This document shows positions 29,325 through 60,873 of a DNA stretch of 64,000 nt, one piece after another. The notes beneath the pieces were generated by a model. It did not search any database, was not told the DNA's origin, and saw only the letters and a program-made list of their open reading frames with translations. Within the stretch, counting starts at the first letter, position 1, and every line of letters begins with the position of its first letter. The translations under genes and the position numbers were made by a program. The DNA is from Candidatus Bathyarchaeota archaeon (lineage in GTDB: Archaea > Thermoproteota > Bathyarchaeia > Bathyarchaeales > Bathycorpusculaceae). The stretch is from positions 64,001 to 128,000 of the forward strand of contig CAWAKC010000007.1 of NCBI GenBank assembly GCA_963782525.1, written 5' to 3'.

Positions 29325-29945
29325 TTATTTCCTCAGGTTTTTCATTATTTGCTGTGCTATTTCCAAGTCTTTAGTCGTGTTAACGTTCAAAAGAACCTCA
29401 GTTTCCGAGGTTATGATAGCGCTGGTTTCAATCTTGCCTTCCCCCAAAACTTTGGCGCCATTGATAATGTTCACTCCCGAAACAGCATACCAGACGCCTT
29501 TGTACTCGTCAGTCGAGGAGATGGAGAGCCCAAGGTCCTGACGTTTTTTTATTGGAACGAAGACGGCTAAGAAGTCTTTTCCGCAGCCCTCAAATTCGCT
29601 TACGACTTTATCAAGAAATGGCCCAGTTATCGCTGGTACGTCGGAGGGCATAGTCAGCACAGGACCCATCAGACTGGCCTTCAGAACGGCTTGTTTTAGG
29701 TCGTTGTGGTAGCCTTTAGCGTCTGTACGCAGAACCTTCCAGCCTCTATCTAAACAGTGCTTTTCGGTTTGAGACGTGTTCGCACTGGTTATGACGTAGA
29801 ACTCGGAGACTTTCTGGGCATTTAAGATTGCGTCTGCCACCCAGTCGATGAGCGGTTTACCTAAAAACGGAAGCAACGGCTTCTCAGTTGGCACACCCAT
29901 ACGCGAGCCTTTGCCGCCAGCCATAATTAAAGCAGGAATCATCAC
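29325..29945 (-). CDS. cobY: Adenosylcobinamide-phosphate guanylyltransferase CobY
   Basis: MAGGKGSRM...EKP, GYHNDL, NVNT..DL; translationally coupled to cobS. Confidence 0.85.
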   Translation of the reverse strand: MMIPALIMAGGKGSRMGVPTEKPLLPFLGKPLIDWVADAILNAQKVSEFYVITSANTSQTEKHCLDRGWKVLRTDAKGYHNDLKQAVLKASLMGPVLTMPSDVPAITGPFLDKVVSEFEGCGKDFLAVFVPIKKRQDLGLSISSTDEYKGVWYAVSGVNIINGAKVLGEGKIETSAIITSETEVLLNVNTTKDLEIAQQIMKNLRK

Positions 29946-30775
29946 AGCATCACCAGAAACACTACTGCAAACAGAATTAACGTCACAGCACGTGCAACCT
30001 CGTTGGTTGCTCCAATCATATCACCTGAAACCCCGCCGAAAACACCCTCTGAAACCTTCTCCATTACAAATGCCACTGGAATGCTGACTAAAACTATGCC
30101 TACAGCAACTAAACCCCACAGCGGACTAATCGTGAGAGCAAACAAGGGAAAAACAACCAAAACAGCAATCACATAGGCGACGGCGTTGAGTTTCTTTTTG
30201 GCTTTGGAGAGAAAAATCGATCCTAACCCTTTATGGCTGGGCTTTCCAAACCAAACAATCGTAACCATCGATAACTTTGCCGCAATTTCGGCAGCTAATA
30301 TGGCGCCAAAAGCAAACATTGGATTAATAAAAAATAAGCCTATGAAAGCGGCAAATTCCACAACCAACGCCAAAACAGCACCCGAATAGGTTACCGTCCA
30401 AGCGTGCGCAACCATCTTTCTGTCATGCACATTCCGCAAGCCCACGGCATTACCTAAGTCGATTAAGCCATCAAAATGTTGCAGTCCAGTTATCACACTT
30501 AAGAAAGCTATTGTCATAGCTGCAGGAAACAAAGTCGGAAAAACCCAATTGGGCAAACCTGCAAAGCTGTGGATTAAACCTAACAAGAAACCTACAATTA
30601 CGCTTGAACCGAGAAAATATAATCCAGCCAGTAAACCGATAAAGCCGCCTAATAATGGAAAAAGCCAAACATTCTCCGCCGTCGTGAAAATAAAATCTTC
30701 TTTTCCCCCAACTGGAATAATGGTGAGGAAAGATAGCAAATCCCTAAAAGTTTTTATAGTTTTCACCGGCGACAT
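29942..30775 (-). CDS. cobS: Cobamide synthase CobS-like, divergent
   Basis: FLTIIP, FPLLG, TGLQHFDGLID, FGGVSGDMIGATNE. Confidence 0.8.
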   Translation of the reverse strand: MSPVKTIKTFRDLLSFLTIIPVGGKEDFIFTTAENVWLFPLLGGFIGLLAGLYFLGSSVIVGFLLGLIHSFAGLPNWVFPTLFPAAMTIAFLSVITGLQHFDGLIDLGNAVGLRNVHDRKMVAHAWTVTYSGAVLALVVEFAAFIGLFFINPMFAFGAILAAEIAAKLSMVTIVWFGKPSHKGLGSIFLSKAKKKLNAVAYVIAVLVVFPLFALTISPLWGLVAVGIVLVSIPVAFVMEKVSEGVFGGVSGDMIGATNEVARAVTLILFAVVFLVML

Positions 30776-30823
30776 ATACCTACAACCTTACTAATAGGGA
30801 ATATAGGCTTTGTCGTGAATTAG

Positions 30824-31759
30824 ATGGCTGAATTGAAAGGGAAAAAAGTGCTGGTTACTGGTGGAGCAGGCTTTATAGGCTTTCACCTGTGCAATAAACT
30901 GTCACAACTGACGGATGACTTAACGATTTATGATAACCTATCAAGCGGTCTAATGAAAAATGTTAAGGATGTTCCCAAAGCCAACTTTATCAAAGGCGAC
31001 ATACTGGACCTCAAAACGCTTTGCAGTTTACCCAAGAGCGATTTAATCTACCATTTAGCAGCACAAGTCGTCGTGGGTTACTCTATGGAGAACCCTCTCG
31101 TTGATTTTGAGACGAACGCCAAAGGAACGTTGTGTGTTTTAGAAAAAGCCCGCAAAGACGACGCAAAAGTGGTTTTTGCTTCCAGCGCCGCAGTCTACGG
31201 CAACCCTACAGTATTTCCAACTCCCGAATCATATGGCTTTCACCCATTCTCATGCTATGGCTTATCCAAAGTGGTAGGCGAAGAATACTGCCAAATGTAC
31301 CGAGAACAATATGGATTAGACATTGTAATAACACGTTTCGCCAACGTTTACGGCCTGCGATGCCATGGCGTTATCCATGACTTCCTTGATAAACTAGCCA
31401 ACAATCCCAATAAACTTGAAATCATCGGTACTGGTGAGCAATGCCGCGATTTCGTACATGTATCAGATGTGGTTGCGGCATTAGTTAAGGTGGGTTCAGA
31501 GGATTATGTTAACTGCGAAGTCTACAACTTGGGGCTCGGCAAAACCACATCCATAATAGAATTAGCCAAATTGATACTGACCATTCTTGATCTTCAAGAC
31601 AAAACGGTCGTCACAACCACAGGCGTTTCATGGCAGGGCGACGTAACCAAAATCTGGTTTGACATCTCCAAAGCTAAAAAAGAGCTCAAATGGACACCCA
31701 AAGTAACGTTGGAAGAAAGCATCAAAGAAGTCATCGCTGACAGGAAAATTAAGAAATGA
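30824..31759 (+). CDS. NDP-sugar epimerase/dehydratase (extended SDR)
   Basis: TGGAGFIG, HLAA, SSAAVYG, YGLSK, RDFVHV. Confidence 0.92.
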   Translation: MAELKGKKVLVTGGAGFIGFHLCNKLSQLTDDLTIYDNLSSGLMKNVKDVPKANFIKGDILDLKTLCSLPKSDLIYHLAAQVVVGYSMENPLVDFETNAKGTLCVLEKARKDDAKVVFASSAAVYGNPTVFPTPESYGFHPFSCYGLSKVVGEEYCQMYREQYGLDIVITRFANVYGLRCHGVIHDFLDKLANNPNKLEIIGTGEQCRDFVHVSDVVAALVKVGSEDYVNCEVYNLGLGKTTSIIELAKLILTILDLQDKTVVTTTGVSWQGDVTKIWFDISKAKKELKWTPKVTLEESIKEVIADRKIKK

Positions 31760-32667
31760 ATGCAGCCGGGTCAGCTAGAGCTCTAGTTGCTCTGCTGCGG
31801 CTTCCCTACTGGCTGATGACCGGCGGTTTGGCGGTGCTAACGGCATTCGCCATCCTAAAAGGCAACTTTTCAAGTATACAAACTTCAGTTGGAACCCTAA
31901 GTTTTGGGTTAGTTGCGCTTCTGACTTTCTTTTCCATGGCACTCATTGCTTCTGCAGGGTTTGCAATAAACGATTATTTTGACAGGGAAAGCGACGCAGT
32001 CATCAAACCTAAACGTCCCATCCCCTCAGGCGCCCTCAATCTGAAGCAGGTTGTGGCGATTACAGGCGTGCTATTTACTTTAGGCTTACTTCTTTCAGCA
32101 TTAATAAATTGGTTAAGTTTCGCAATAATAGCCATTGATTCACTTTTGCTTTTGGTTTACTCGTACATGGTGAAACGAAAGTCCGGTTTCGCCGCTAACC
32201 TGCTAATGGGTATTTTGACGGGTACAGCGTTCATATTTGGGCAAGCAACCGTTTCAGGCACTATAACATGGATTTCACTAAGCCTCTACCCAATCGCGTT
32301 TGGAACAATAGGCGGCAACGTGCTACGCGACATCTTAAGCATGGAGGGCGACTCAAAAGTGGGATACCCAACGCTACCACAGAAAATCGGCGCTATCAGC
32401 GCAGCTAAAGTCGGCGGCATATTCTTCCTCCTCACAGGATTGCTTGCTCCTCTGCCTGCTCTACCCCTGTTCAAAGACCACTTTACATTGTATTATTTGC
32501 CGCTGATTCTGCTCTGGAGTGCACTGTTAATTTACTCCTCTATACGATTATTCGTGTCAAGTTCAACCATAGCAGATATACGCAAGTATGAAAGGTTGGT
32601 AACGATGTCAATGATGCTGTTGCCGCTTGCACTCATTATTGAAGCTGTCCTTGGATGGTTAATATGA
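31756..32667 (+). CDS. UbiA prenyltransferase, DGGGP-synthase-like, divergent
   Basis: AINDYFDRESD..KPKRPIPSG; second motif altered to NVLRDILSMEGD. Confidence 0.8.
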   Translation: MNAAGSARALVALLRLPYWLMTGGLAVLTAFAILKGNFSSIQTSVGTLSFGLVALLTFFSMALIASAGFAINDYFDRESDAVIKPKRPIPSGALNLKQVVAITGVLFTLGLLLSALINWLSFAIIAIDSLLLLVYSYMVKRKSGFAANLLMGILTGTAFIFGQATVSGTITWISLSLYPIAFGTIGGNVLRDILSMEGDSKVGYPTLPQKIGAISAAKVGGIFFLLTGLLAPLPALPLFKDHFTLYYLPLILLWSALLIYSSIRLFVSSSTIADIRKYERLVTMSMMLLPLALIIEAVLGWLI

Positions 32668-34130
32668 GCGAAACCAAAAGCATCTGCCCTGAATGCCAAA
32701 AGAAAATCGACGCCCAATTAGCCCAGTCCCACGGCAAAATCCAAATAACCAAACAATGCCCCGAACACGGCGAATTTCACGCCACCCACTGGCAAAGTGT
32801 ACCCGTCTACAATCACATGCAAAAGTACGACCAGTTCCAATACCTCGGCGACCTAAATGCACCCAAAAACCCCGAGGGCTGTCCCTACAAATGCGAAACC
32901 TGCAACAAACACGCGTCGGGCACAGTCATCGGCGTAATCGACGTAACCAAACGTTGCAACTTCAAATGTGCTGTATGCTTTAGTACTTTTCCAAATCAAG
33001 AAGCAGATTATGAACCCACCAAAGAAGCCCTCATAAACATGCTTGAGTTCGCAGCTAACGCAAATCCTAAGCCTCCAGCAATTTTGTTCTCAGGTGGCGA
33101 ACCGCTCGAACGCGAGGATATGCCAGAAATTATTGCGGCGGCACACAGGCTAAAATTTATGACTATCTTGGCGACCAACGGAACCCATCTCGTTGATACC
33201 CCCGGGTTGGCTAAGAAGCTCAAAGACAGCGGCTTAAACATAGTTTACTTGTCCTTTGACAGTTTCCATGAAGAATTCAACCGAAAAGTTCGAGGACGAG
33301 AACTCTTAGAAATGAAACTGAAAGCCATTGACGTTTGCCGCACACAGGATATGGAAATCATCCTCGTGAACACCCTCATGAAGAGCCTCAACGACAAGGA
33401 GGTCGGTGACATGATACGTTTCGCTTCCAAAAACACTGACATCGTCCGAGGATTAATCTTCCAGCCTATCGCTTTCACGGGCAGAGCCACAGAGAACCCG
33501 TTCCGCGAAAATTTCCGCGAATGGAGCTTCGCCGAGGATGTTGAAAAGCAAACGAACGGGGAAGTGAAAGCTACTGATTTGTATCCGATGTCTGTTATGA
33601 CTTCGCCGATTAAAATCATGCGTAAATTCATGCAGAAACCCTGGCCGCTATTCAGCTGTAGCCCGCAATGCGGCATTGTTAACTGGGTTTACGTTTCCAA
33701 AAGCGGCAAAATGTTTCCCATAAACCGCTTCGTCAACTTTGACCGGTTCTTCAACAGTATCCGCAAAACCGCTGAAGAAGCCGAATCCAAGGGCAAATTC
33801 TCATTGCTTTCATCGCTGTTTATGGCTTCAATGCTATCTATGGACATGTTTTTGGTCACCAAAGAAGTGGGCATGCCAACTTTGATGAAATCCATCATGA
33901 AAATGCATCTCTCGCCATCTTATCAGTCGCTGGGCAAAATCCGACGCAGAATCTTCCTCTTAGGCTGCATGGCATTCATGGATTCCTACAACTTCGACGT
34001 CAACCGCGTCCGCCGATGCGTCGTCCACTACATCACGCCTGACCTGAAGATTATTCCGTTCTGCGCCTACAACAACGTCCACCGAGTAGCTATCGAGAAA
34101 GCGTATGCTGAAAGACAAAAGAAAGCTTAA
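32664..34130 (+). CDS. Tetraether synthase (Tes/GDGT-MAS, MJ0619 family)-like radical SAM enzyme
   Basis: SICPEC...CPEHG, GCPYKCETCNKH, CNFKCAVC, SGGEP, CSPQC, FMDSYNFD..RVRRC..HY...IPFCAYN; ATGA overlap at 32664. Confidence 0.8.
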   Translation: MSETKSICPECQKKIDAQLAQSHGKIQITKQCPEHGEFHATHWQSVPVYNHMQKYDQFQYLGDLNAPKNPEGCPYKCETCNKHASGTVIGVIDVTKRCNFKCAVCFSTFPNQEADYEPTKEALINMLEFAANANPKPPAILFSGGEPLEREDMPEIIAAAHRLKFMTILATNGTHLVDTPGLAKKLKDSGLNIVYLSFDSFHEEFNRKVRGRELLEMKLKAIDVCRTQDMEIILVNTLMKSLNDKEVGDMIRFASKNTDIVRGLIFQPIAFTGRATENPFRENFREWSFAEDVEKQTNGEVKATDLYPMSVMTSPIKIMRKFMQKPWPLFSCSPQCGIVNWVYVSKSGKMFPINRFVNFDRFFNSIRKTAEEAESKGKFSLLSSLFMASMLSMDMFLVTKEVGMPTLMKSIMKMHLSPSYQSLGKIRRRIFLLGCMAFMDSYNFDVNRVRRCVVHYITPDLKIIPFCAYNNVHRVAIEKAYAERQKKA

Positions 34131-34193
34131 CCTATTGGAATGGAATTTAGGGCTTTTTGGTGCTTTTTAGACTTTTTGAACTCTGAAAAAAAA

Positions 34194-34721
34194 TTACTTT
34201 TTTGCTGCTTCTGCAGTCATTTGCTTGACGAACGCTTTGATGCCTTCAGGTTGACCGTAAACTACTATGCGCCCATCCTTTTCGGGTTTGACCTGGAGAT
34301 TTTGTTCTTCAGCAATCCGTAGTATCCGTCCGGCTGGCAGGTCCTTGATTGGTTCCACTCTCACCCATTTTTGGTCTCTCGGAACACCCGTAACATACTT
34401 GTCCTCCGATGCGGGTTCCTCGCAAACTTCAGCGTTAGCTTCTTCTAGGCGCCTTAGCCATGCGTCAACTTTTTCGGCACCAAAAACCTTCTGCGCCTCC
34501 TCGGCGAGATAAGCTTCCACGTTTGCAGATAATTCCTCAGCTTTTTGGAGAGCATCGCCTGCGCCCCTGGCTTGGGTGCAATGAAGCTTTATCATGCTTT
34601 TTGCAGACCGCAAGTCCGCCAGAATATTTTCAGGGATTACTACTCCTTTTTTCTCCAAATCAATGAGCATGCTTTCGAGAACTTTCCATGATGCCATGTT
34701 GTGACCCATAACCGTCGCCAT
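34194..34721 (-). CDS. DUF2096-like archaeal protein
   Basis: WKVL..M..DL.KKG...DLR.AK..I, GVPRDQKWVRV. Confidence 0.6.
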   Translation of the reverse strand: MATVMGHNMASWKVLESMLIDLEKKGVVIPENILADLRSAKSMIKLHCTQARGAGDALQKAEELSANVEAYLAEEAQKVFGAEKVDAWLRRLEEANAEVCEEPASEDKYVTGVPRDQKWVRVEPIKDLPAGRILRIAEEQNLQVKPEKDGRIVVYGQPEGIKAFVKQMTAEAAKK

Positions 34722-34871
34722 CTGAAATGTTAGGACTTTGCGCTATAAAGGGTTAATCATGGCGGGCAGGGTTTGGAAAGAAATAAATCATTTAACTGGT
34801 TGTAGATAATTGGAGAGTTCTCTTTCGGGAACCAAAGTTAATTTTCAATTAATTTTTTGGCGGTTAAAAAA

Positions 34872-36248
34872 ATGGAAATAAAAACCATCAAGTCTGAAGG
34901 TTTAGCCCACAACAGCTACTATCTATCCGACGAACATGAAGCCGTAGTTATTGACCCAAGGCGTGACTGCGAAATCTACACCCAACTTGCCAAAGAAGAC
35001 TGCGCAAAAATCAAATATATCCTAGAAACTCATCGCAACGAAGACTACGTCGTCGGCTCACTGGAGCTGCAGAGCCTCACAGGAGCAGAAATCGGTCACA
35101 GCAACGCTTTGCTTTTCAAGTATGGAGAAGACAAGTTGTCTGATGGCGACGTCTTGCATGTAGGCGGTGTAAAGATAAAATCTCTCTACACGCCCGGACA
35201 TACCAACGAATCCCTTTGTTACGTTATTTATCCCTCAGAGAGTAACGATGCTAAAGCTGTTTTCACGGGCGACACAATCTTTGCGGGTTCCGTTGGGCGA
35301 ACCGACCTCTATGGCAAAACCAACCATCCCACTCAAGCAGAAAAACTCTACATTAGCCTAAACGAAAAGTTGTTGCGGCTGGGTGACCATGTTTTGGTTT
35401 ACCCCGCCCATGGCGCAGGCAGCGTCTGTGGTCACGGCATAAATAACATGGAACCAACCACGCTTGGCTTCGAGAAAAAAACCAATCCCTACCTGCAATT
35501 TGGCAAGGATGAATTCATCAAAAAAGTAACTGCTGAAGAATTGGTGGTACCAAAGTACTTCAAAAAAATGGAGGAACTAAACCTGAACGGTCCACCGCTA
35601 CTCAGCAAAATGTCCAATCCAAAACCTTTCTCGCTGCTCGAGTTTGAAGTGGAAATGCAAGAGCAGAATATGATTGTTATAGACACTCGAATGCCCTACG
35701 CGTATGCAGGGTCACATATCCCCAATTCAGTCAGTTTGTGGCTTGGAGGAACTAGCGTTTACCCCGGATGGCTCTTTGATACCAATCAGTACATCATCTT
35801 CATGCTTGAGCGCCCAAGTGATATCGACATTGCGGCGCCACAGTTTAGGCGGCTGGGTTTTGACAACATGTGTGGTTACCTATGCGGCGGCATGAATCAG
35901 TGGCAGGATGCGGGGAAGCCTTTCCGTAGCTACAAAACCGTTTCAGCCCCAGAAACAAAAGAGCGGTTTGCTAAGGGCGAAGTTTTGTTGTTGGATGTTC
36001 GGGATCCGCCAGAATGGACCGAAGATGGTTACATTGAGGGTGCAACTCGGATTTTCTTTGGTGACTTACCCCAAAAAACCGCAGAATTGCCAAAAGACAA
36101 ACCGATTGTTGTTACTTGTTCGGTTGGGAACCGTTCAAGTATTGCATTAAGCATGTTGGAGCGGGCGGGCTTTGAAGATGTCAGTAACATGCTTGGCGGG
36201 TTGACTGCATGGAGAAACCGTGGGTATCCGATCAAAAAAGAGATCTAG
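34872..36248 (+). CDS. MBL-fold hydrolase with two rhodanese domains
   Basis: ETHRNEDY, TPGHT, FTGD, PAHGAGS; C-terminal CSVGNRS rhodanese loop. Confidence 0.9.
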   Translation: MEIKTIKSEGLAHNSYYLSDEHEAVVIDPRRDCEIYTQLAKEDCAKIKYILETHRNEDYVVGSLELQSLTGAEIGHSNALLFKYGEDKLSDGDVLHVGGVKIKSLYTPGHTNESLCYVIYPSESNDAKAVFTGDTIFAGSVGRTDLYGKTNHPTQAEKLYISLNEKLLRLGDHVLVYPAHGAGSVCGHGINNMEPTTLGFEKKTNPYLQFGKDEFIKKVTAEELVVPKYFKKMEELNLNGPPLLSKMSNPKPFSLLEFEVEMQEQNMIVIDTRMPYAYAGSHIPNSVSLWLGGTSVYPGWLFDTNQYIIFMLERPSDIDIAAPQFRRLGFDNMCGYLCGGMNQWQDAGKPFRSYKTVSAPETKERFAKGEVLLLDVRDPPEWTEDGYIEGATRIFFGDLPQKTAELPKDKPIVVTCSVGNRSSIALSMLERAGFEDVSNMLGGLTAWRNRGYPIKKEI

Positions 36249-36250
36249 CC

Positions 36251-36970
36251 TTATTGTTCTGATGGCTTAAGTGCCTTCGCCATTCGTTTGGCGTTGTCTT
36301 TGGGTTCCAAGAGTTCCTTGACAAGGTTGTATTGGCGTTGGTAGATGTGACAGTTTTTCGAGTGGAAAATTAGTTTGCCTGTTTTCAATGAAAGGTTGCC
36401 TCGCTCGTTTATTTCGTTGACGAAAGCTTCATTGAAAAGCTGAAGTCCAGCGATGTTAGCCGGTAACCCGCCATACGCATCCCAGCTTCGAAAATAGGAG
36501 GTGAAATGCATTTGGTTGTCGAGAATTTCTGTGTCGATTAGGCTCAGGCAGGGGGGTTCACTTTTTTTGTTGTTTTTACCGTATTTTTTTATGTCTTCTG
36601 GGAACCTGATAACCATCGTAACTTGCCGATCCCTCTGCTCTTCAATGTATCTTTTTATGGCTTCCTCAACCTGGTTGATTGGATGATTTAGGCGGCTGCC
36701 GTAGGTGTAGGTTTCGTCTTCTTGTTTTTCGCCACACCACAAATACTCCAACGCGTAGCCTTGGACGTACTTGAAGTCGCATGGCGCTTTATCGCTGACC
36801 AGAGGCCGATTTTCAGGGTTTGTTATTTCGATTGTAAGATTCAGCTTCCTAGTTTCAGTCTCTTCTGAGCCAAAACCGACTTTGAAAACATCCCCTTCCC
36901 TCCAAATTGCGCTTAACGCTTTGAACCAAGCATCAGGGCAATCGAATGCTGAAATCTTCACATGTTTCAA
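36251..36970 (-). CDS. thyA: Archaeal-type thymidylate synthase family protein
   Basis: YTYGSR, PPCL, FRSWD...PAN, HIY. Confidence 0.8.
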   Translation of the reverse strand: MKHVKISAFDCPDAWFKALSAIWREGDVFKVGFGSEETETRKLNLTIEITNPENRPLVSDKAPCDFKYVQGYALEYLWCGEKQEDETYTYGSRLNHPINQVEEAIKRYIEEQRDRQVTMVIRFPEDIKKYGKNNKKSEPPCLSLIDTEILDNQMHFTSYFRSWDAYGGLPANIAGLQLFNEAFVNEINERGNLSLKTGKLIFHSKNCHIYQRQYNLVKELLEPKDNAKRMAKALKPSEQ

Positions 36971-37134
36971 ACAGAGGTCTCCGAGTTACCGAATAATGTT
37001 TAGCCACTTAACATAATAACTTTACCAATCAAAAGTGGTTCTCTGAATTTTTAACATTCTAATTGCTTGAAAAAGTGCCAATTCGACCTGGCCCTAAGGA
37101 TTCAATCTAGGTTGGAATTAAAAGCAGAATACAA

Positions 37135-37172
37135 AACTTTTTTTAAAAAATAAAATAAAGAAAGAAAATTTG
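37135..37172 (-). terminator. Oligo-T terminator region of the thermosome gene
   Basis: T-rich tract on the minus strand immediately after the stop codon. Confidence 0.5.
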
Positions 37173-37178
37173 GGTCGC

Positions 37179-51980: not shown

Positions 51981-53360
51981 TTAATGGAATATTAGTTTGG
52001 AGCCCTTCTTAACGGCAGAACCAATACCTTCCTGCTTAATCACCCGAATTAGGTTGGAAGCCGCAGACTTCCGAAAACTCCCCTGAAACTCTTTTTGGAT
52101 TTTAACAAGCATGTCATAGTCAAAGTCGGGGGTTTTAACACGGGCAAGGTAGTTGTTCATTTGGTCGTAGAGGTGTTGGCTTATTACTTCGTCGTAGAGT
52201 TTGCTACCGGGACAGGCGATGTAGATGTTGAACATGCAGACGTCAGCTTTCAGGGACTTGGCATACTTGAAGGTTGCTTGCATGTCCTCGACGGTTTCGC
52301 CTGGAATACCAAGCATAAACGATGTGGCTGTTCTAATTCCAATTTGGCGGGTCAGCTCGAAGGTGTTTTTAACTTCTTGAAGGTCGACGTTCTTGCCAAG
52401 TTTCTGCTGGATTCGCTCTGAGCCAGATTCGGTTCCGAAAAAGATAGTTTGGCAACCTGCTGACTTCATGTCAGAGAGCACTGCTCTATTCACTAGGTCA
52501 GCGCGTGTTTCGCAGGTCCATTTGAGGTCAAGCTTGTTTTCCTTGATTTTGCGGCAAAGCTCGATGGTGCGGTTTTTGTTTATGGTGAAATTGTCGCCGA
52601 CAAAGTAGATGCCATTTGTGCCGTAATTTTCTACCATGTTTTTGATTTCGTCAACAACGTGTTGGGTTGAAAAAGCTCGGCAGCTGGTTCCCCAGAGCGC
52701 GCGTGTTTCGCAGTAAGCGCATTGATAGGGGCAGCCGCGGAGTATGCTCATGGTGTCGACGGGTTTAGCGTCGATGTAGGGCAAGACGCGGTCATACATT
52801 TTCATGGGCAACAAATGGCGCGCAGGGATGGGGATTGTGTCTAAGTCACTGATAAACTGCTGCGGCGTCTGGACGGTTTCGCCGTTAATTTTGCATGCAA
52901 CTCCCGGGATGGCAGCGGAAACAGTTTTCGGTTCACCCTTTTGGATGCTGGCTGCAAGCTTAACCATCGCTGCTTCTCCTTCTCCGATAACAACAAAGTC
53001 AACTTCGCCGTGTTGCAGCAGGGTTTCAGGCATGTATGAAGCATGGGGACCGCCGACCACAACCATACAAGATGGACAAGCTTCTTTGACGGCTTTAGCC
53101 ATCTCGACACACCGCGAATAAGTCAAACTGCTACAGGTTATGCCCACAATTTCTGGTTGTCGTTTTTTAATTTCTGCTTTAACCGTTTCGATGGGTTGCC
53201 CCAAAAGATAATTATCGTAAATCTCAACTGAGAAACCGCTTTTTTCCAGTGCCGCCGCAACGTAGGCTAAGCCCAATGGAGCAAGTTTTCCCGCCATACC
53301 CCAAGGAGACCTCTCGGGCAGCATGGTGGTCATTAGAAGTATCAAGTGTGTTTTCTCCAT
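51981..53360 (-). CDS. B12-binding radical SAM enzyme (class B) no. 1
   Basis: PLGLAYVAA, VGGPH, GEGE, RGCPYQCAYC, DNFT, GTESGS, GIPGET. Confidence 0.92.
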   Translation of the reverse strand: MEKTHLILLMTTMLPERSPWGMAGKLAPLGLAYVAAALEKSGFSVEIYDNYLLGQPIETVKAEIKKRQPEIVGITCSSLTYSRCVEMAKAVKEACPSCMVVVGGPHASYMPETLLQHGEVDFVVIGEGEAAMVKLAASIQKGEPKTVSAAIPGVACKINGETVQTPQQFISDLDTIPIPARHLLPMKMYDRVLPYIDAKPVDTMSILRGCPYQCAYCETRALWGTSCRAFSTQHVVDEIKNMVENYGTNGIYFVGDNFTINKNRTIELCRKIKENKLDLKWTCETRADLVNRAVLSDMKSAGCQTIFFGTESGSERIQQKLGKNVDLQEVKNTFELTRQIGIRTATSFMLGIPGETVEDMQATFKYAKSLKADVCMFNIYIACPGSKLYDEVISQHLYDQMNNYLARVKTPDFDYDMLVKIQKEFQGSFRKSAASNLIRVIKQEGIGSAVKKGSKLIFH

Positions 53361-53366: not shown

Positions 53367-54779
53367 TTACTTGATGGGGCTGGTTAGTTTAGCCATAAGT
53401 GCTCTTCGGAAGTGTGCCATTATCAGTCGCGTCGCGCCCAAACCCCACATCTTGCCTTTTTTGAACATGCCGATTGCGCTGATGAAGTATCTTGGGCTGA
53501 GGTAGAAGCTTTGGAATGCCTGTTCACGTATCTGTACCAGTTCCTGCATGGTCATGTTTGGGATTTCGAAGGTTGGGGTGGCGGTGTCGTACCTGTCGAA
53601 GTCAGTTATTTTCAGTGACCCGTTGGCGTTAACTTCTTCGTACATGGGTGTTCCCGGATAAGGTGTGGCGATGTAGAAGCCAACGTCGTTAGGGTTAAGT
53701 TCCTTGACGAAGCGGATTGTTTCCCAAGCGCTCTCTTTGGTTTCGCCGGGGAAACCTAAGATGACGCCTGCAACGGTCATTAGTCCTGCTTCTTTTGCCC
53801 ATTTGAAGGCGCGTCTTGTTTGTGTAAGCGAGAAGCCTTTGCCCATGCTCGTTAACTGTTTCAAAGAGCCTGATTCCACTCCAAACCAAACCGCGATGCA
53901 TCCAGCTTCACGCATCTTGACGAGGAGTTCTTTGCTAACCATGTCAACGCGGGTTTCGCAGTCCCATTTGATTTTGAGTCCCCTGCGGTGGATTTCATCG
54001 CAGATTTCAGCGGTCCTCGCTTGGTCCACGGTGAAGGCGTCGTCGTAGAAAGTGAATTGGTTGGCTTTGTAGTTTTTGTGGAGGTATTCGAGTTCGTCGA
54101 CGACATTTTTGGGTGTACGCATACGATATTTTCTGCCGAACATTCGGACTGCAGTGCAGAAATTACACCAGAACACGCAGCCTCTGCTGGTCATAACTGG
54201 GTAGGGTATGGTTCCGTATTTTCGCAGTTCGCCCAGTTTTTCCCATAGGTGAAGGGCGGGGAATGGTAGGCTGTCGAGGTTTTCTAGGAAAGGTCGGTCG
54301 GCGTTTTTGACTATTTCATTACCTTTCCTGCATGTTGTGCCTGGAAGGTCAAAGAGAGGCTGGTTGTTTTCGACTCTTTGAGCGAGTTCCAACATGGTTT
54401 CTTCGCCCTCTCTTCTAATGATTACGTCTAAGGAAGGCGCTTCTTGCAATGCCTTGTCATCCCAGAACGTAACGTGTGGACCGCCAACAGCAGTTACGCA
54501 GTTGGGCAGGGCTTCTTTCGCTGATTTTACGATTTTTAGTGCAGATTTGTAGGTTAAGGTCGTGCATGTGACGCCAACGATGTCTGGTTTGTACTTGGCG
54601 ATTACTTCTTTGAACTGGTCATGACTGATTTTTTGTGCCTGACAGTCAATAACTTTAACTTCAAAATGATTCTTTTCTAACACCGCACCCAGGTATCCTA
54701 TGCCTAAGGGCATGAAGGGTGGATGCTGATGGGAACCGGCAGGGTAAGGTGGATTCACTAGGGTAATGTGAGTTTTCAT
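53367..54779 (-). CDS. B12-binding radical SAM enzyme (class B) no. 2
   Basis: PLGIGYLGA, VGGPH, EGE, SRGCVFWCNFC, DDAFT, GVESGS, TPYPGT. Confidence 0.92.
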   Translation of the reverse strand: MKTHITLVNPPYPAGSHQHPPFMPLGIGYLGAVLEKNHFEVKVIDCQAQKISHDQFKEVIAKYKPDIVGVTCTTLTYKSALKIVKSAKEALPNCVTAVGGPHVTFWDDKALQEAPSLDVIIRREGEETMLELAQRVENNQPLFDLPGTTCRKGNEIVKNADRPFLENLDSLPFPALHLWEKLGELRKYGTIPYPVMTSRGCVFWCNFCTAVRMFGRKYRMRTPKNVVDELEYLHKNYKANQFTFYDDAFTVDQARTAEICDEIHRRGLKIKWDCETRVDMVSKELLVKMREAGCIAVWFGVESGSLKQLTSMGKGFSLTQTRRAFKWAKEAGLMTVAGVILGFPGETKESAWETIRFVKELNPNDVGFYIATPYPGTPMYEEVNANGSLKITDFDRYDTATPTFEIPNMTMQELVQIREQAFQSFYLSPRYFISAIGMFKKGKMWGLGATRLIMAHFRRALMAKLTSPIK

Positions 54780-54897: not shown

Positions 54898-55614
54898 TTA
54901 CTTTGTAGGATGTTTTGGCTTAAGATAACATTCTTTAATTTCCATGTAAAGCCATTTCCGCTTCCAATTCTTTGATTTTTCATCTTTCTTTTTGGCTTTG
55001 AACCTGCCAATTTCGATGGATTCTTTGAAAAGCGGCGCTTCCACTACTGTGCTGTGGTAGCCTTGCCCGTCTTCGCTGGATACGTCTATGCCTTTTGCGT
55101 CTGCTAACGCTTTGAGTTCTTTGATAGATTCTGGGTCGATTTTTCGTCCCAGCCATTCTTCACCAAAAAAGTTCGTGTTGATACAGTTTAGCATGGGTCT
55201 TAAGCCGCCATCGATGACTTCTTTGAGGACGCTATAGGTGTCGCCGTCGGCGCTTACATTAGGCATAAGAAATTCAAGGTCCAGCTGTTTTGCCATGCTC
55301 TCGTAGTAGCTTGAATGAACAAGGGCGCAGCCGGCTCCAGCTATGTCACCAGTAACGATGCCCTCGATGCCCTGCTCCTGCTTGAGTTTGGTTAGGGCGC
55401 CCAAGATGTCTTCGTAGGCTTTTTTGATTCGGACAACTTTGAGGGGAGTACCTAAGGTTTTGGATTGGAGCTGCATGACGTCGAAGCTGTGGAAAATGTA
55501 GGGTCTTTGATATTCGAAGCTAAGAAGACAAGCAACTTGATGACCCTGAGCGATGACTTTGTGGTAGGCTAAACAGCATTCTTTACCCCCGCTCCAATGA
55601 ACGACAAGTTTCAT
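54898..55614 (-). CDS. DUF71/COG2102 PP-loop ligase, paralogue 2 (more divergent)
   Basis: WSGGKEC, IVTGDI, WLGR, SEDGQGYHSTVVEAPLF. Confidence 0.8.
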   Translation of the reverse strand: MKLVVHWSGGKECCLAYHKVIAQGHQVACLLSFEYQRPYIFHSFDVMQLQSKTLGTPLKVVRIKKAYEDILGALTKLKQEQGIEGIVTGDIAGAGCALVHSSYYESMAKQLDLEFLMPNVSADGDTYSVLKEVIDGGLRPMLNCINTNFFGEEWLGRKIDPESIKELKALADAKGIDVSSEDGQGYHSTVVEAPLFKESIEIGRFKAKKKDEKSKNWKRKWLYMEIKECYLKPKHPTK

Positions 55615-56384: not shown

Positions 56385-57386
56385 TTGGAACTGAATCTCC
56401 TAACTATAGGAACCACTGTTGTAATGTTGGTTTTAGCTATCTTGTTAGATTTGGTGCTTGGCGACCCCTCACCCAACAACCCCGACAGATGGGTTTTCAA
56501 GCTGCATCCCACCGTGCTTATGGGCAATTTTACAAAAAAAATCGAACCCTACTTCAAAAATCCAGAAGCAAAAACCGAAAAGTTCTTGGGTGTTCTTTTG
56601 GGTTTAACGGTGATTGCTACGTTCACGGTACCCACTTTCTTGGGGCTTTGGGCAATCCTCATTTTCCTGCCCTTCTTCTTCAACGTCCTCTTCTACGCAG
56701 TCATAGGCATCATCCTGCTCAAAATGACGATATGCATTAAACTCGAAACTGATTGGGCAAAAGCCGCTGCCAAAGCCATAGACGAAGCCGACTTGCCTGA
56801 AGCAAAAAAATATAGCCATTTCTCAAGGCGAGAATCCAAAGACCTAAACGGCGCCCAAATGGGCAGCGCAGTCATCGAATCCATGTCTGAGAACCTGATC
56901 GACTTTAAACTCTCACCAATGATGTCTTTCGCATTGTTTGGGGTTACTGGTGCGATTGCTTTTCGAGCAATTAACACTCTTGACGGTATGGTAGGCTTCA
57001 AAACTAAAGAGCACATTAACACGGGGTGGTTTAGTGCTAACATCGACAACTTTGTAAACTATATTCCAACTCGATTGACGGCTTTGCTCATGATTGTTGC
57101 CGCAGCAATCTTACGAATGGATGCTGGAAACGCATGGAGAATGGCGCGGCGTGACCACAAAAAAACTCCTAGCCGCAATCACGGTTGGCCTATGGCAGCC
57201 GTCGCCGGGGCTTTGCGAATTCAGCTGGAAAAACCTGGGCAGTATATCCTTGGCGATGCTCAGGAACATTTGACGGGGGACAAGATTTTGGGAGCGCTTC
57301 GAATTAGGGATGTTACAATTGTTTTGTGGGGATTCTTGTGCGTGGCTGTCATTGTTGTTGTGAGGTTATTTTTCTTGCCCGTTTAG
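56385..57386 (+). CDS. cbiB: Adenosylcobinamide-phosphate synthase CbiB
   Basis: LDLVLGDP, HP, ESMSEN..D, RAINTLDGMVG, NYIPTRL, TPSRNHGW. Confidence 0.9.
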   Translation: MELNLLTIGTTVVMLVLAILLDLVLGDPSPNNPDRWVFKLHPTVLMGNFTKKIEPYFKNPEAKTEKFLGVLLGLTVIATFTVPTFLGLWAILIFLPFFFNVLFYAVIGIILLKMTICIKLETDWAKAAAKAIDEADLPEAKKYSHFSRRESKDLNGAQMGSAVIESMSENLIDFKLSPMMSFALFGVTGAIAFRAINTLDGMVGFKTKEHINTGWFSANIDNFVNYIPTRLTALLMIVAAAILRMDAGNAWRMARRDHKKTPSRNHGWPMAAVAGALRIQLEKPGQYILGDAQEHLTGDKILGALRIRDVTIVLWGFLCVAVIVVVRLFFLPV

Positions 57387-57448: not shown

Positions 57449-57709
57449 ATGAATTCTGCCTTTTACAAGTCTCTAATTATTGTTAAGGTATTTAGTCAAG
57501 TCTTGTTTTTGTTTGGATTGCTAGCGTGGCTTGACGGTGTAGTCATACAGCTCACTCATCCCGAGTGGCTGCCGTTGTCAGTGTCGCATCTTTTGCCCTG
57601 GATAAGAACCGACACCTTCACAATCTTAATGTTCATTGTAAGTGCGGTTGGGTTTTTTGTTTGGAGAGTAATCGCCGAACTAATCGAAGCGGACAAGAAA
57701 ACAACTTAA
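57449..57709 (+). CDS. Small 2-TM membrane protein
   Basis: 86 aa, two hydrophobic helices around HPEWL...RTD. Confidence 0.65.
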   Translation: MNSAFYKSLIIVKVFSQVLFLFGLLAWLDGVVIQLTHPEWLPLSVSHLLPWIRTDTFTILMFIVSAVGFFVWRVIAELIEADKKTT

Positions 57710-59256
57710 GGCTTAGAATAAACTACTTTTCCATCTACTATGGTCAGGTCCACGGGTATGTCTTTAATTTTTTCGGTTGGAACACCCAGTGGATCGGCTG
57801 CTAGAATGGTAAGGTCAACGAGTTTGCCCTCTTCAATTGAGCCCTTAATTTTTTCTTCGCCCGAACAGTAAGCGGCGTCGAGCGTGTACATGCGCAAAGC
57901 TTCCTCAACTGTTAAACGCTGCTCAGGATAACTTTCCCTCAATACGGCTTCTTGCATTCCCAGCAACGGGTTCAGGGGTTCCATGGGGCAATCGGAGCCG
58001 CCCGCAACATGGACACCTTCGTTTAGCAGGGTTTTGAGGGGATGCAGCCACTTTGCACGTTCAAAGCCTAAATGCTCAGTAGCTGACCATGTTGCGAATT
58101 CTGTGGGAACCATTTTAGGCTGGACTGAAACGACGATATCCTGCGCTCCAAGGCGCTTAACTAGACATCTGTTGAGGACTGCTGCCTGCTCGATGCGGAA
58201 CCTGACCTTTTTGGCAGAATGCTCAATTACGGTCAGTGCCGTATCAACTGCCTTATCGCCCATCGCGTGGATAACAGGCTGTAGACCCAATGCTACAACC
58301 TCTGCCACCCAAACAGCCAATTCATTCTGGTTGAGCAACATTTTGCCTTTGTTGTTTTGGTCGTCGCTGTAGGGATCTGTGAGTGCAGCAGTTTTGGAAT
58401 CTAAATAACCGTCAACAAAGATTATGACGCTTCCCAAACGCAGTCGCAGAGGATCATTCGACGTAAACCCGCTTGCATTTTTTAAGAATTCATATGGTAC
58501 TATCACGTTAACTCTGACTGGAAGCTTACCTTGTTTGTGGAGTGTCTGGATTAGGGAAAGCTCGTTTTCGGAGAGAATTATCCAGTCGATACTTGTAATT
58601 CCCGCTTGCACAACCTGTTGGCACGCCAACGCCGCTGCATCCGCAAGTTCCTCAGCGGTTGGCTCTACAACTGCCTGCCAAACCAAGTTGGTGGCACTGC
58701 CTCGAAAAATCCCCGTCAACTCACCCGTCTCAGATTCGTCGATGGATCCGCCTGATAAAACTAGTGTTTGCTTTGTTATGCGAGCGACTGCTAAGGCTTT
58801 GGTGTTTGCAGCACACGTGTACGCAGCTCCATGATAGAGGATTATGGGGTTTTCTGGTGCAGCCTCATCAAGGTCGCCGAGGGTTAGGAGGCGTTTTTCT
58901 TTAAAGTTTTTTTCGTTCCAGCCGCGTCCAACTATCCATTTCCCAGCAGGCGTCTGCTTCACCTTCTGCTTGAGGAGTGTTTGTACGTCCCCGATTGATT
59001 GAACACTGGAGAGGTCAAGCCACATTAAGCACCTGCCAAAATCAGCTACATGAATATGAGTGTCGATTAAACCTGGAACCACTGTTTTGCCCCCGAGGTT
59101 AACCACTTTGGTGCTCTTTCCAATCAGCTGATTTATTTCTTGATTTAAACCCACTTTGACGATCCTGTTTTTTTTGATAGCCACGGCTTGAGCAACAGGT
59201 TGGCGCAGATTCATGGTTCGAATGTTCCCGTTAAGTAGGACTAAATCAGCTGGCAA
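57706..59256 (-). CDS. Amidohydrolase-3 (YtcJ/NfdA-like) metal-dependent hydrolase
   Basis: PGLIDTHIH, GRGWNE, FVDG, HAMGDKA, RIEQA, GSDCP. Confidence 0.88.
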   Translation of the reverse strand: MPADLVLLNGNIRTMNLRQPVAQAVAIKKNRIVKVGLNQEINQLIGKSTKVVNLGGKTVVPGLIDTHIHVADFGRCLMWLDLSSVQSIGDVQTLLKQKVKQTPAGKWIVGRGWNEKNFKEKRLLTLGDLDEAAPENPIILYHGAAYTCAANTKALAVARITKQTLVLSGGSIDESETGELTGIFRGSATNLVWQAVVEPTAEELADAAALACQQVVQAGITSIDWIILSENELSLIQTLHKQGKLPVRVNVIVPYEFLKNASGFTSNDPLRLRLGSVIIFVDGYLDSKTAALTDPYSDDQNNKGKMLLNQNELAVWVAEVVALGLQPVIHAMGDKAVDTALTVIEHSAKKVRFRIEQAAVLNRCLVKRLGAQDIVVSVQPKMVPTEFATWSATEHLGFERAKWLHPLKTLLNEGVHVAGGSDCPMEPLNPLLGMQEAVLRESYPEQRLTVEEALRMYTLDAAYCSGEEKIKGSIEEGKLVDLTILAADPLGVPTEKIKDIPVDLTIVDGKVVYSKP

Positions 59257-59421
59257 TTTTCAGTTTCCCGAGATAATATTCGTAACAAATCGCTATTAAT
59301 GCTTACGTTAACCCCTGTATCCTAATGGAAAAAATTGACACCGCTGATTTTTACAAAATTTATAAATCCTGCATTCGGATAGAAACCTTCGTATCAACCA
59401 AAGTCCTGTGTGAAAGCAACC

Positions 59422-60873
59422 ATGCGTGTTTGTTTGATTAATCCCCCACGTATTCAACCCAGGTTATGGGGTAAGCCGAGTATACTTCAACCCCTAGATA
59501 TAGCGTATGTCGCGGCTGTCTTGGAAAAAGACCATGAAGTACACGTCATCGATGCTGCAAACGAAGGCTGGAAAACTCTTCAAGACGTGGATGGAAACAA
59601 GTATCGGCAGGGACTAAAGAACGAAGAGATAGCTGCAAGACTCAAACATTGGGCGCCTGATGTTGTGCAGATTACGATTCCTTTTTCGGGCTGGTGGAAA
59701 CCAGCTTACGAGATGGCGGAAATAGCTAAAAATACAGACAAAGACACCGTCACCGTTTTGAGTGGGTTGCATCCTTCTGCCCGACCCGTCGATTGTCTTT
59801 CGCATCCAAACATAGATTACGTTATAGTTGGTGAGCCAGAATACACTGCAAAAGAACTCGTAAGCGTGTTAGGACAGGAAAAAGAGATTAACCTCAAAAA
59901 GGTCTTGGGTATCGGTTACATGAAAGATGGGCAACCAGTAATCACTCCTCCAAGACCACCCATCGAAGACTTGGATACCCTGCCATTCCCGGCAAGGCAC
60001 CTGTTGCCCATGGAAGAATACTTCGCAGCCGTAAAAGAGAACCCGCTCAGGGGCGAAATTGGCCATCATTGGACAACAATGATTACGAGCAGAGGTTGCC
60101 CCTATAACTGTGTCTTCTGTTCAGTCCATACGCTCATGGGTAAACAGTGGAGAGGCAGAAGCCCAGAAAACGTAATCGCTGAAATAAAACATCTCGTCGA
60201 CACATATAGCATAAAGCAGATTGACTTCAGCGACGAAAACATCTGTTTAGACAGGAAAAGAATGGAATGCATCTGTGACTTAATCATCCAAAACAAGTTT
60301 GACATCGAATGGTTCACTCCAAACGGAGTGAGGGCAGACACATTAAGCGAGACACTCCTAGAGAAAATGAAAGCATCTGGCTGCAAAAAGATTCGTCTTG
60401 CACCTGAGTCGGGGGTTCAACGAGTTGTGGACACAATCATCAAAAAGAACCTCAACCTAAGCGATGTGGAGCAAGCTATTGTTTGGGCTAAGAAAGCAGG
60501 AATCAAAGTGGGCATCTTCTTCGTAATAGGACTCATAGGGGAAACCAAAGAAGAAATCGAACAAACCATAAAGTACGCTTACAAACTTCGCGGGTTGGGC
60601 GCAGAGGGCTTTCACTTCAGCATAGCCATGCCAGTGTATGGAACAGAACTCTATGAGCAAGCGGTAAAAGGCGGATATTTAAGGGAGTGTTTCAGCGACG
60701 AAGCTTTAGCTGCTTCTGAACCCTTAATTGAAACAGAAGACTTCAACGCCGAAGAATTAATCGATTTATGCAAAAAAGCAAATCAAATCAACTCAGCTTT
60801 GACGCTGAAAAAAATCTTGAACGCTGCCAAACACCCTAAAAAAGTAATACGATTTATACAAGGTACAATCTAA
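59422..60873 (+). CDS. B12-binding radical SAM enzyme (class B) no. 3
   Basis: LINPP, PLDIAYVAA, GLHPS, GEPE, SRGCPYNCVFC, DEN, PESG, PVYGT. Confidence 0.92.
   Translation: MRVCLINPPRIQPRLWGKPSILQPLDIAYVAAVLEKDHEVHVIDAANEGWKTLQDVDGNKYRQGLKNEEIAARLKHWAPDVVQITIPFSGWWKPAYEMAEIAKNTDKDTVTVLSGLHPSARPVDCLSHPNIDYVIVGEPEYTAKELVSVLGQEKEINLKKVLGIGYMKDGQPVITPPRPPIEDLDTLPFPARHLLPMEEYFAAVKENPLRGEIGHHWTTMITSRGCPYNCVFCSVHTLMGKQWRGRSPENVIAEIKHLVDTYSIKQIDFSDENICLDRKRMECICDLIIQNKFDIEWFTPNGVRADTLSETLLEKMKASGCKKIRLAPESGVQRVVDTIIKKNLNLSDVEQAIVWAKKAGIKVGIFFVIGLIGETKEEIEQTIKYAYKLRGLGAEGFHFSIAMPVYGTELYEQAVKGGYLRECFSDEALAASEPLIETEDFNAEELIDLCKKANQINSALTLKKILNAAKHPKKVIRFIQGTI

Follow-up and report, generated by a model that had tools for sequence, protein, structure and literature searches.

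Why would an archaeon keep genes for the last steps of cobamide (B12) assembly interleaved with genes for ether lipids, when its genome holds canonical copies of both? The question is raised by a stretch of 64,000 nucleotides, here called the window, from a Candidatus Bathyarchaeota archaeon (GenBank assembly GCA_963782525.1, contig CAWAKC010000007.1, positions 64,001 to 128,000). Between positions 29325 and 60873 of the window, homologues of cobY, cobS, cobD and cbiB lie among genes for a UbiA prenyltransferase resembling digeranylgeranylglyceryl phosphate (DGGGP) synthase, a tetraether synthase (Tes), glycosyltransferases (GTs) and radical S-adenosylmethionine (SAM) enzymes, some with a B12-binding domain (Table 1). 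The window's Tes, UbiA, CobS, CobY, CobD and CbiB are diverged second copies, 30-43% identical to the canonical ones, and are called Tes2, UbiA2 and so on below. Core linkage in relatives, a cluster in another family and a joint distribution across genomes mark these genes, as a sequence-only reading of the same DNA had supposed, as a conserved unit and not a chance neighbourhood.

Conserved spare lipid and B12-finishing enzymes beside B12 radical enzymes point to an undescribed, B12-fuelled pathway. We favour, at a probability of roughly 0.4, a second, tailored and probably glycosylated tetraether line that is coupled to its own line of cobamide salvage and nucleotide-loop assembly, the latter feeding B12-binding radical SAM enzymes, some of which would tailor the lipid. 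No report of a linkage between Tes/UbiA and cob genes was found in the literature searched, although the supplements of PMC11697101 (Fig. S10, Table S4) and PMC11214058 may list the genes.

Second copies that stay together

The source genome (G000) comprises 2.87 Mb in 12 contigs and is 95.8% complete; the window sits on its contig C7. Genes were called by Pfam and NCBIfam scans of open reading frames between 21 kb and 64 kb of the window, and paralogues were sought by tblastn of the window proteins against the 2.87-Mb genome, together with NCBIfam scores. Every gene named by the sequence-only reading, from cobY to the third B12-binding radical SAM gene, was recovered in its place, and the coordinates bear out the operon layout. 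The cobY and cobS genes overlap by 4 bp (29325-30775, minus strand) and lie 48 bp from the facing epimerase-ubiA-tes operon (30824-34130, plus strand), with gene overlaps of 4-13 bp inside both units. The hyp184-cobD-AKR genes (plus; AKR, aldo/keto reductase) run divergently from a GT2-GT2-GT4 operon (minus) with 84 bp between them, and a TrmB-like regulator with C-terminal hydrophobic, membrane-type helices is divergent from cbiB. The first listing has to be amended in that it left out the unrelated housekeeping genes at 34194-38867 and the Amidohydro_3 gene at 57706-59256 (minus strand), and in that the cob genes, UbiA and Tes of the window are all second copies in the genome. Canonical counterparts are found in a DUF71-CobT-CobS-CobY run directly upstream of the window (C7:60260-63425; CobT 397 bits), on contig C4 (CobD, 306.9 bits, and CbiB), on C1 (Tes) and on C9 (UbiA).

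B12-binding radical SAM genes occur at about 14 loci in the 2.87 Mb, so that 0.15 would be expected per 31.5 kb where 3 are observed. The proper test beyond chance is conserved linkage, not this local count. For ten genomes we compared the 40 kb that surround Tes2, and for 80 species loci Tes2 with flanks of 10 kb; the denominators are loci with enough flank for the gene in question. The sequence-only reading would have fallen had the linkage dissolved among relatives, which it does not: Tes2 is flanked by UbiA2 in 79/79 loci, by the epimerase in 76/76, by CobS2 in 74/74 and by a CobY in 70/70. Within 10 kb of Tes2 we also find the SPASM radical SAM gene (49/58), GT4 (46/58) and canonical cobT/cobS (33/47). 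The usual order, contiguous over about 21 kb, reads cobD2-hyp184, GT2b GT2a GT4, DUF362-SPASM, cobY2-cobS2, epimerase-ubiA2-tes2, GT2b' GT4' hyp193' and DUF71' cobT cobS' cobY'. The window shows this conserved island in rearranged form and with an inserted thermosome block, which is within 10 kb of Tes2 in just 7/47 full-flank loci. All related loci in named public records belong to Bathyarchaeia subgroup 6 (Bathy-6; Candidatus Bathycorpusculum and relatives) and come from soil, peat, bioreactors and termite guts.

The linkage is also kept in a one-contig genome of another family (G040), at 40-60% protein identity. Here, a near-complete set occupies about 33 kb: epimerase-UbiA2-Tes2, CobS2-CobY2, CobD2-hyp184 and CbiB2, with three GTs, the SPASM enzyme, the methyltransferase (MT), the AKR, six B12-binding radical SAM enzymes and the amidohydrolase. 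Around the cluster lie CobQ/CbiA-like, CbiZ, CN-hydrolase, RnfD-ferredoxin and HemN-like genes, and canonical CobS, CbiB and a single CobT are encoded elsewhere in the genome.

Across 401 Bathyarchaeia genomes we searched for the Tes2, CbiB2 and B12b types, Tes2 being called at 44% identity or more and 463 bits (canonical Tes reaches at most 381 bits); the boundary between CbiB2 and canonical CbiB is blurred in two genera. Tes2 was found in 76 genomes, CbiB2 in 79 and B12b in 81; 72 genomes have all three, 83 have at least one, and 318 lack them all. Tes2 is present in 74 of the 79 CbiB2 genomes and in 74 of the 81 with B12b. Carriers fall into about 13 genera, two families and one order (Bathy-6); beyond that order none of the types was found in the 401 genomes, bar one B12b match. 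About 42 genomes have canonical CbiB only and no Tes2. CobS was not found in any of 12 Tes2-lacking genomes of the order that were tested, and both CobS and CobS2 are present in 8/8 Tes2-bearing ones. In 42 of 74 genomes a single contig carries both Tes2 and CbiB2, and the two are at most 50 kb apart in 41 of the 42 (median 23.5 kb).

Five paralogue pairs (GT2b, GT4, DUF71, CobS and CobY) connect C7:57556-63425 with window positions 29325-30775, 42365-45253 and 49200-49946, all at 28-32% identity. It looks as though a GT-DUF71-cob block had been duplicated once, as a segment, long ago. Might duplication and inertia then be all there is, with no functional coupling? Equal divergence of the five pairs is what a single block duplication predicts, and kin share gene order. 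Against this, the order has been reshuffled many times and yet the genes remain together, even at 40-60% protein identity, and they are gained and lost jointly across genomes, so that we regard this explanation as very unlikely.

Table 1. Features of the window discussed in the text, in order of position.
Feature	Position	Strand	Evidence and remarks
carS (CDP-archaeol synthase)	24268..24780	-	PF01864 149.8 bits; context only
CobY2, adenosylcobinamide-phosphate guanylyltransferase-like NTP transferase	29325..29945	-	TIGR00454 121.1, NF045495 97.6 bits
CobS2, cobalamin-5'-phosphate synthase-like membrane protein	29942..30775	-	TIGR00317 118.1 bits
NAD-dependent sugar-nucleotide epimerase/dehydratase	30824..31759	+	PF01370/PF16363; first gene of epimerase-UbiA2-Tes2 operon
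UbiA2, diverged DGGGP-synthase-like prenyltransferase	31756..32667	+	PRK12884/PRK12882, about 150 bits
Tes2, second tetraether-synthase paralogue	32655..34130	+	NF045702 464.9 bits
Inserted housekeeping block: DUF2096, MBL-rhodanese, ThyA-like, thermosome	34194..38867		Pfam; outside the system
SPASM radical SAM enzyme (AhbD/NirJ-like)	39986..41413	+	PF04055 + PF13186; TIGR04545 308 bits, cut-off 500
DUF362 protein	41406..42368	+	PF04015 167.8 bits; 8-bp overlap with end of SPASM gene
GT operon: GT2b 44555-45253, GT2a 43561-44568, GT4 42365-43618	42365..45253	-	Pfam
hyp184, small multi-pass membrane protein (DUF4234-like)	45338..45892	+	Atlas look-alikes only
CobD2, L-threonine-O-3-phosphate-decarboxylase-like	45876..46997 (about)	+	TIGR01140 282.4 bits; CTG start
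AKR with C-terminal 4Fe-4S dicluster domain	46994..48091	+	Pfam; 65% orthologue in G040
Class I SAM methyltransferase (MT)	48103..48915	-	Pfam; 53% orthologue in G040
DUF71a, PP-loop ATP pyrophosphatase, B12-associated kind	49200..49946	+	PF01902; motif EPGEYH
B12a, B12-binding radical SAM enzyme	51981..53360	-	PF02310 + PF04055; G040 homologues 51-58%
B12b, B12-binding radical SAM enzyme, lineage-specific multi-copy subfamily	53367..54779	-	Pfam, NCBIfam scans
DUF71b, first of run DUF71b-B12b-B12a	54898..55614	-	PF01902; motif DGQGYH
TrmB-like helix-turn-helix regulator, C-terminal membrane helices	55708..56232	-	PF01978, weak
CbiB2, second adenosylcobinamide-phosphate synthase	56385..57386	+	TIGR00380 232.1 bits
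Amidohydro_3 metal-dependent hydrolase	57706..59256	-	PF07969 330 bits; 51% orthologue beside CbiB2 in G040
B12c, B12-binding radical SAM enzyme	59410..60873	+	Pfam, NCBIfam scans; 62% orthologue in G040

The putative second ether-lipid operon

Tes2 passes the NCBIfam Tes equivalog cut-off (450 bits; canonical Tes on C1 scores 673.3). The solved Tes enzyme has CX2CX20CX2H, Cys3-His and CX3CX2C ligand motifs (PMC9433317), and Tes2 carries each of them: the rubredoxin-like CX2CX20CX2H (C11/C14/C35/H38), the Cys3-His motif (C76/C80/C83/H86) and the radical SAM CX3CX2C (C101/C105/C108). These ligands are invariant across Tes2 of G000, G003 and G040 and the canonical copy. C339, C455, C470, M439 and M442 are likewise invariant and are candidate residues for the C-terminal [4Fe-4S] cluster with its labile methionine. 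In a quick FastTree analysis of 59 rows (45 representatives of 430-600 residues were kept, others dropped), Tes2 forms a separate clade with a long stem and an SH-like support of 99. Canonical Bathy-6 Tes falls elsewhere, so Tes2 is not orthologous to the lineage's canonical Tes, to which it is 38-40% identical. Of 1.84 billion representatives searched, just one other cluster comes close (the G040 type, at 45% identity and 471 bits), and the best match beyond the clade stands at 320 bits. In a separate homologue search, the 120 matches listed are all relatives at 68-94%. Tes2 thus defines a narrow, well-separated second Tes clade with fixed partners, namely a DGGGP synthase paralogue, an epimerase and CobS/CobY paralogues. 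In 4 of 24 same-genus genomes (G002, G004, G016, G023) Tes2 is in two to three pieces or has an in-frame stop; several of these are few-contig assemblies, and long-read indel errors are as likely a cause as decay.

UbiA2 is 30% identical to the canonical copy. It scores below the NCBIfam cut-offs (150.2 against 269 bits for PRK12884, 148.8 against 296 for PRK12882), as does canonical UbiA itself (232.1 and 175.3 bits). DGGGP synthases, which belong to the UbiA superfamily, have two Asp-rich motifs. In a three-sequence alignment the first (NDYxDxxxD) is intact in UbiA2 as NDYFDRESD, and the first Asp of the second is replaced by Ser in G000 and G040. The epimerase is GalE-like at 168 bits, under the cut-off of 262.

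We infer every substrate and the direction of supply in the favoured reading, in which the three-gene operon would produce a specialised membrane-spanning lipid beside the bulk glycerol dialkyl glycerol tetraether (GDGT) made by the canonical copies. Tes2 would form the biphytanyl C-C bonds of this lipid. The neighbouring GT2/GT2/GT4 operon, whose orthologues in G040 are 41-52% identical, would then probably glycosylate it. GT2b resembles AglJ/Dol-P-hexose transferase (158 bits, cut-off 325). Genes for an AglB/STT3 oligosaccharyltransferase and an AglH-like Glycos_transf_4 protein lie 9-12 kb upstream (17657-20866, minus strand), so the GT operon could serve protein rather than lipid glycosylation. 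The sequence-only reading had also pointed to carS, which does lie 4.5 kb upstream of the cluster. It is the sole match in the genome and is within 10 kb of Tes2 in just 9/58 related loci.

How does this operon compare with known tetraether systems? The Tes/GDGT-MAS system with its Grs, Gms, Gmm, Ted and Cgm enzymes is alike in the Tes metal-ligand motifs that were checked, and published lipid-modifying clusters, such as gms-grs-gmm of Thermococcus guaymasensis, likewise have SPASM and B12-binding radical SAM genes nearby. Tes2 differs in its constant company of CobS/CobY paralogues, a DGGGP synthase paralogue and an epimerase, of which the accessible descriptions say nothing. A second Tes copy occurs in 22/322 methanogen genomes (PMC8941075). 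One of them, MA_1114 of Methanosarcina acetivorans, gave no GDGT and only traces of macrocyclic archaeol (PMC8941075). By description, Tes2 and MA_1114 are alike as second copies beside a working one, whereas no cob or UbiA neighbours are mentioned for MA_1114 in the accessible part of that paper (PMC8941075). The epimerase-UbiA2-Tes2 operon offers lipid laboratories a concrete target for expression in existing archaeal hosts, and a new Bathy-6 lipid, if real, would be a candidate biomarker for Bathyarchaeia of peat, soil and gut.

One such lipid had already been suggested. The sequence-only reading connected the region with butanetriol and pentanetriol tetraethers (BDGT/PDGT), and the cluster does combine B12-binding radical SAM methylase candidates with a dedicated DGGGP synthase and Tes, and the accessible literature that was searched names no enzyme for methylation of the backbone. 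This connection is not borne out. BDGTs are now taken to mark Methanomassiliicoccus and Baizosediminiarchaeum, a genus of Bathy-8 (PMC12694404, PMC13003381). The cluster types, in the 401 genomes, are confined to Bathy-6 but for the lone B12b match. We reject the butanetriol reading on these grounds of taxonomy and distribution and give it next to no chance.

The second cobamide gene set

CobY2 falls under the cut-offs of both its models (174.7 bits for TIGR00454, 250 for NF045495), and so does canonical CobY (147.5 and 115.6 bits). The two are 32% identical (canonical copy C7:62811-63416), and a quick tree search separates two deep clades, with CobY2 in its own. The partners of the two cobY genes are exchanged in a single lineage of 11 loci, to which the published complete Bathy-6 genome belongs: in that genome (G389 C1:2359390-2397473) cobT-cobS is followed by a cobY of the CobY2 type, and cobS2 is preceded by one of the canonical type. 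This swap fits both CobYs using one kind of substrate. CobS2 meets its cut-off here (110 bits; canonical CobS 156.7), while in relatives it scores 82-105 bits, under the cut-off as single matches, against 140-169 for canonical copies. CbiB2 is above its threshold (165.9 bits).

CobD2, over its full frame, is 8 bits short of the 290.55-bit cut-off and aligns end to end with Salmonella CobD (1LC5), including the HGG(D) motif and the pyridoxal-phosphate lysine of SVTKFYG; it scores 164 bits to 1LC5 against 106 to 6OUX. A different linker, as in nor-cobamide, finds no support here, since CobD2 resembles a normal threonine-phosphate decarboxylase. The gene might be taken for N-terminally truncated, which we reject as an artefact of open-reading-frame calling at a CTG start (45876-45878, the frame being open from 45897); at the matching codon relatives start with TTG (G010) or ATG (G014/G015). 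An overlap between this start and the end of hyp184 suggests that translation of the two genes is coupled. hyp184 always lies upstream of cobD2, next to it both in G040 and in relatives, and an Atlas search returned DUF4234-like membrane proteins of no known function as its look-alikes.

Canonical cbiB is split by a frameshift into two frames in the source genome (C4:74859-75789), either through an assembly indel or as a real pseudogene, and the closest relative (G010) has no strong canonical CbiB match. If the split is real, CbiB2 would be the sole intact CbiB.

The DUF71 proteins bear on the same set. In the B12-associated DUF71 subgroup an ENGEF/YH motif replaces the EGGE/DxE of Dph6 (PMC3541065). 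The motif reads EGGEYH in the copy beside CobT and EGGEIE, the Dph6 form, in a copy on C12; all three copies on C7 end in YH, as in the B12-associated subgroup, and match ENGEF/YH only in part. Archaeal nucleotide-loop assembly and salvage (CbiZ, CbiB, CobD, CobY, CobS, CobT and DUF71-B12) draws on the same families, and DUF71 lies beside cbiB here as described in PMC3541065. Unlike known archaeal cobamide loci, this set is a second one beside the canonical set, has no second CobT (CobT is single in G000 and in 8/8 Tes2-bearing genomes tested) and is tied to lipid genes.

For the coupled lipid and cobamide lines that we favour, CobD2 would supply aminopropanol phosphate, CbiB2 would attach it, CobY2 would activate the product with GTP and CobS2 would close the loop. 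The B12-type DUF71 enzymes, the amidohydrolase and the more distant second CbiZ would accompany this line, which may be read as corrinoid salvage and remodelling. The idea that the region simply completes its own cobamide needs changing in that the set is a second, diverged CobD/CbiB/CobY/CobS group beside a canonical one.

Alternatively, the second set could, together with the B12-binding radical SAM enzymes, DUF71, amidohydrolase and methyltransferase, make a distinct cobamide with an altered periphery, linker or lower ligand. What is duplicated is exactly the four enzymes of the aminopropanol-phosphate linker, with CobT single; B12b adjoins CbiB2, a DUF71b-B12b-B12a run exists, DUF71a and DUF71b end in YH, and the extended cluster holds CbiZ, CobQ-like and CN-hydrolase genes. 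A BzaCDE homologue is also named at a B12 locus in PMC11697101. The lower-ligand form of this idea, which the sequence-only reading had offered as its alternative, is weak. The Bza operon (BzaA/B or BzaF, BzaC, BzaD, BzaE) does share with the region B12-binding radical SAM genes beside cob genes. Unlike there, the BzaD model TIGR04385 yields 139, 129 and 93 bits against a cut-off of 450, and the source genome, 95.8% complete as it is, contains no match to TIGR04386 and no ThiC-like (BzaF/BzaAB) match. CobD2, moreover, looks like an ordinary decarboxylase, at least seven B12-binding radical SAM enzymes are many for a single cofactor, and UbiA2, Tes2 and the GTs would be left unexplained. We consider corrinoid tailoring unlikely.

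A further possibility is that the cob paralogues have been repurposed, CobY2 and CobS2 working with CobD2 and CbiB2 to build a phosphodiester headgroup on the UbiA2-Tes2 lipid or to tether a corrinoid to it. CobS2 and CbiB2 come from families of integral-membrane enzymes, and the 48-bp divergent intergenic region common to CobS2-CobY2 and the lipid operon belongs to an arrangement kept in 74/74 loci. A missing second CobT is expected if the acceptor is other than alpha-ribazole, and CobS2 scores well under CobS (82-118 against 140-169 bits). The solved Tes, too, has a large pocket in which headgroups are bound without specificity (PMC9433317). On the other side, the cobY swap and the ordinary CobD features of CobD2 fit normal corrinoid substrates, and the CbiZ and DUF71-B12 neighbours point to cobamide work. 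We also know of no precedent for phosphodiester-headgroup chemistry by cob enzymes, and we judge repurposing improbable.

In its boldest form, CobS2 would join the GDP-activated product of CobD2, CbiB2 and CobY2, be it a corrinoid or another aminopropanol-phosphate carboxylate, to a hydroxyl of a glyco- or ether-lipid, which we see as a long shot. The lipid would come from epimerase-UbiA2-Tes2 and the GTs, and the product, on the same slim odds, would be either a base-off cobamide anchored in the membrane or a phosphodiester headgroup of cobamide style. This chemistry would explain why exactly four linker enzymes are duplicated without CobT, why CobS2-CobY is tied to the lipid operon, and why late cobamide enzymes sit in the membrane. 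The complete second linker set without a second CobT opens tests of CobS and CbiB paralogues on other substrates, and it bears on the long-standing question of the membrane location of late cobamide steps.

Radical SAM enzymes and the wider island

For the coupled lines, the cobamide would load the B12-binding radical SAM enzymes that have expanded in this lineage (B12a, B12b, B12c and more downstream), together with SPASM and HemN-like radical SAM enzymes. At least some of these would act on the Tes2 lipid, whether by methylating, desaturating, cyclising or cross-linking it. The accessible literature describes B12-binding radical SAM enzymes, among them one from a Bathyarchaeon, that introduce rings, methyl groups and double bonds into GDGTs, and Bathyarchaeota carry many copies of the Gmm2 clade. 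The SPASM enzyme has a 55% orthologue in the G040 cluster, and DUF362 is beside its gene in most related loci. No GrsA/GrsB, Gmm, Gms, Ted or Cgm family appears among the NCBIfam matches listed for the region. Sequence searches of the PDB gave no clue to substrates: B12b matched distant B12-binding radical SAM enzymes (AprD4, TokK, TsrM, OxsB) and the amidohydrolase matched uncharacterised hydrolases only.

The genes downstream on C7 widen the picture to an island of about 120 kb, rich in B12 and radical SAM genes. They include four more B12-binding radical SAM genes, SPASM and HemN-like ones, RnfC/D-like genes, a second CbiZ and a CN-hydrolase. Several considerations weigh against a pathway centred on the lipid, and they are best taken together. 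None of the region's radical SAM enzymes reaches an NCBIfam cut-off, and no result links any of them to lipid. B12b's tightest partner is CbiB2, not Tes2: among the matches listed, the nearest gene of the B12b subfamily on the same contig is at most 4 kb from CbiB2 in 27/36 genomes and at most 250 bp in 10/36. Both this and the position of DUF71b at the head of the B12b-B12a run (gaps of 118 bp and 6 bp) lean towards corrinoid chemistry. With 2-4 copies per genome, the B12b subfamily looks more like a catabolic family, and the island's MtrH-like and corrinoid proteins, MetK and Rnf-like genes suggest that the common theme may be B12, not lipid. Tes2 and CbiB2 are on separate contigs, some of them large, in 32/74 genomes. 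Kin are not independent: behind the co-occurrence stand about 13 genera of two families, and the counts show a pattern, not a statistic. Finally, it is left unexplained why the lipid line should need its own CobS and CobY.

The main rival is a B12 economy in which both cob sets supply B12-binding radical SAM enzymes and corrinoid methyltransferases acting on lignin-derived or other small molecules, while the lipid module rides along. Beyond the multi-copy B12b, the second CbiZ and the MtrH-like, corrinoid, MetK and Rnf-like genes just named, it can point to PQQ/Ig proteins interleaved with island genes, and to 7-20 B12-binding radical SAM enzymes per Bathy-6 genome, which together with PQQ-domain proteins have been ascribed to lignin metabolism in the sole paper on these genomes (PMC11697101). 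What it leaves unexplained is the place of CobS2-CobY beside epimerase-UbiA2-Tes2 (74/74 loci for CobS2, 70/70 for CobY; at most 3 kb away in G040), as well as the absence of Tes2 wherever CbiB2 or B12b is missing, bar two genomes each way. Adjacency to PQQ/Ig genes, in a family of about 50 copies, is expected by chance. We take the B12 economy seriously but think it doubtful. The coupled lipid and cobamide lines offer an alternative to the lignin reading of the B12-dependent radical SAM expansion in Bathy-6.

The published complete Bathy-6 genome (CP170178.1; PMC11697101; G389) covers the same region. Its description places B12 genes at three loci and reports many B12-binding radical SAM enzymes (PMC11697101), and lipids occur 0 times in the main text. 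Duplicate CobS/CobY/CbiB/CobD or Tes/UbiA paralogues are not mentioned in the accessible part of PMC11697101.

Some minor observations concern the surroundings. An Rfam scan of the window matched no family, and hence no cobalamin riboswitch was found. In four RNA libraries, short contigs of relatives with a likeness of 90-99% reach 18-28 of the 30 bins that make up 29325-49324 and lend weak support; they indicate presence only, not transcription level or operons, and uncovered bins carry no meaning. A paralogue of the TrmB-like regulator (46% identity) adjoins another radical SAM gene at C7:160398. At C7:164305-165660, within a radical-SAM-rich stretch, this archaeon has a gene for a MetK of bacterial type with N, M and C domains. 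An MtrH-like methyltransferase and a small corrinoid protein, a pair of the O-demethylase type, lie at C7:177407-178763 beside a B12b paralogue and the second CbiZ. At 60957-63776 (minus strand) the window encodes a PQQ/beta-propeller and Ig-domain protein of about 900 residues, of a kind for which a lignin role has been suggested in Bathy-6 (PMC11697101). It has about 50 paralogues genome-wide at 29-51% identity, and several of the PQQ/Ig genes are interleaved with radical SAM genes.

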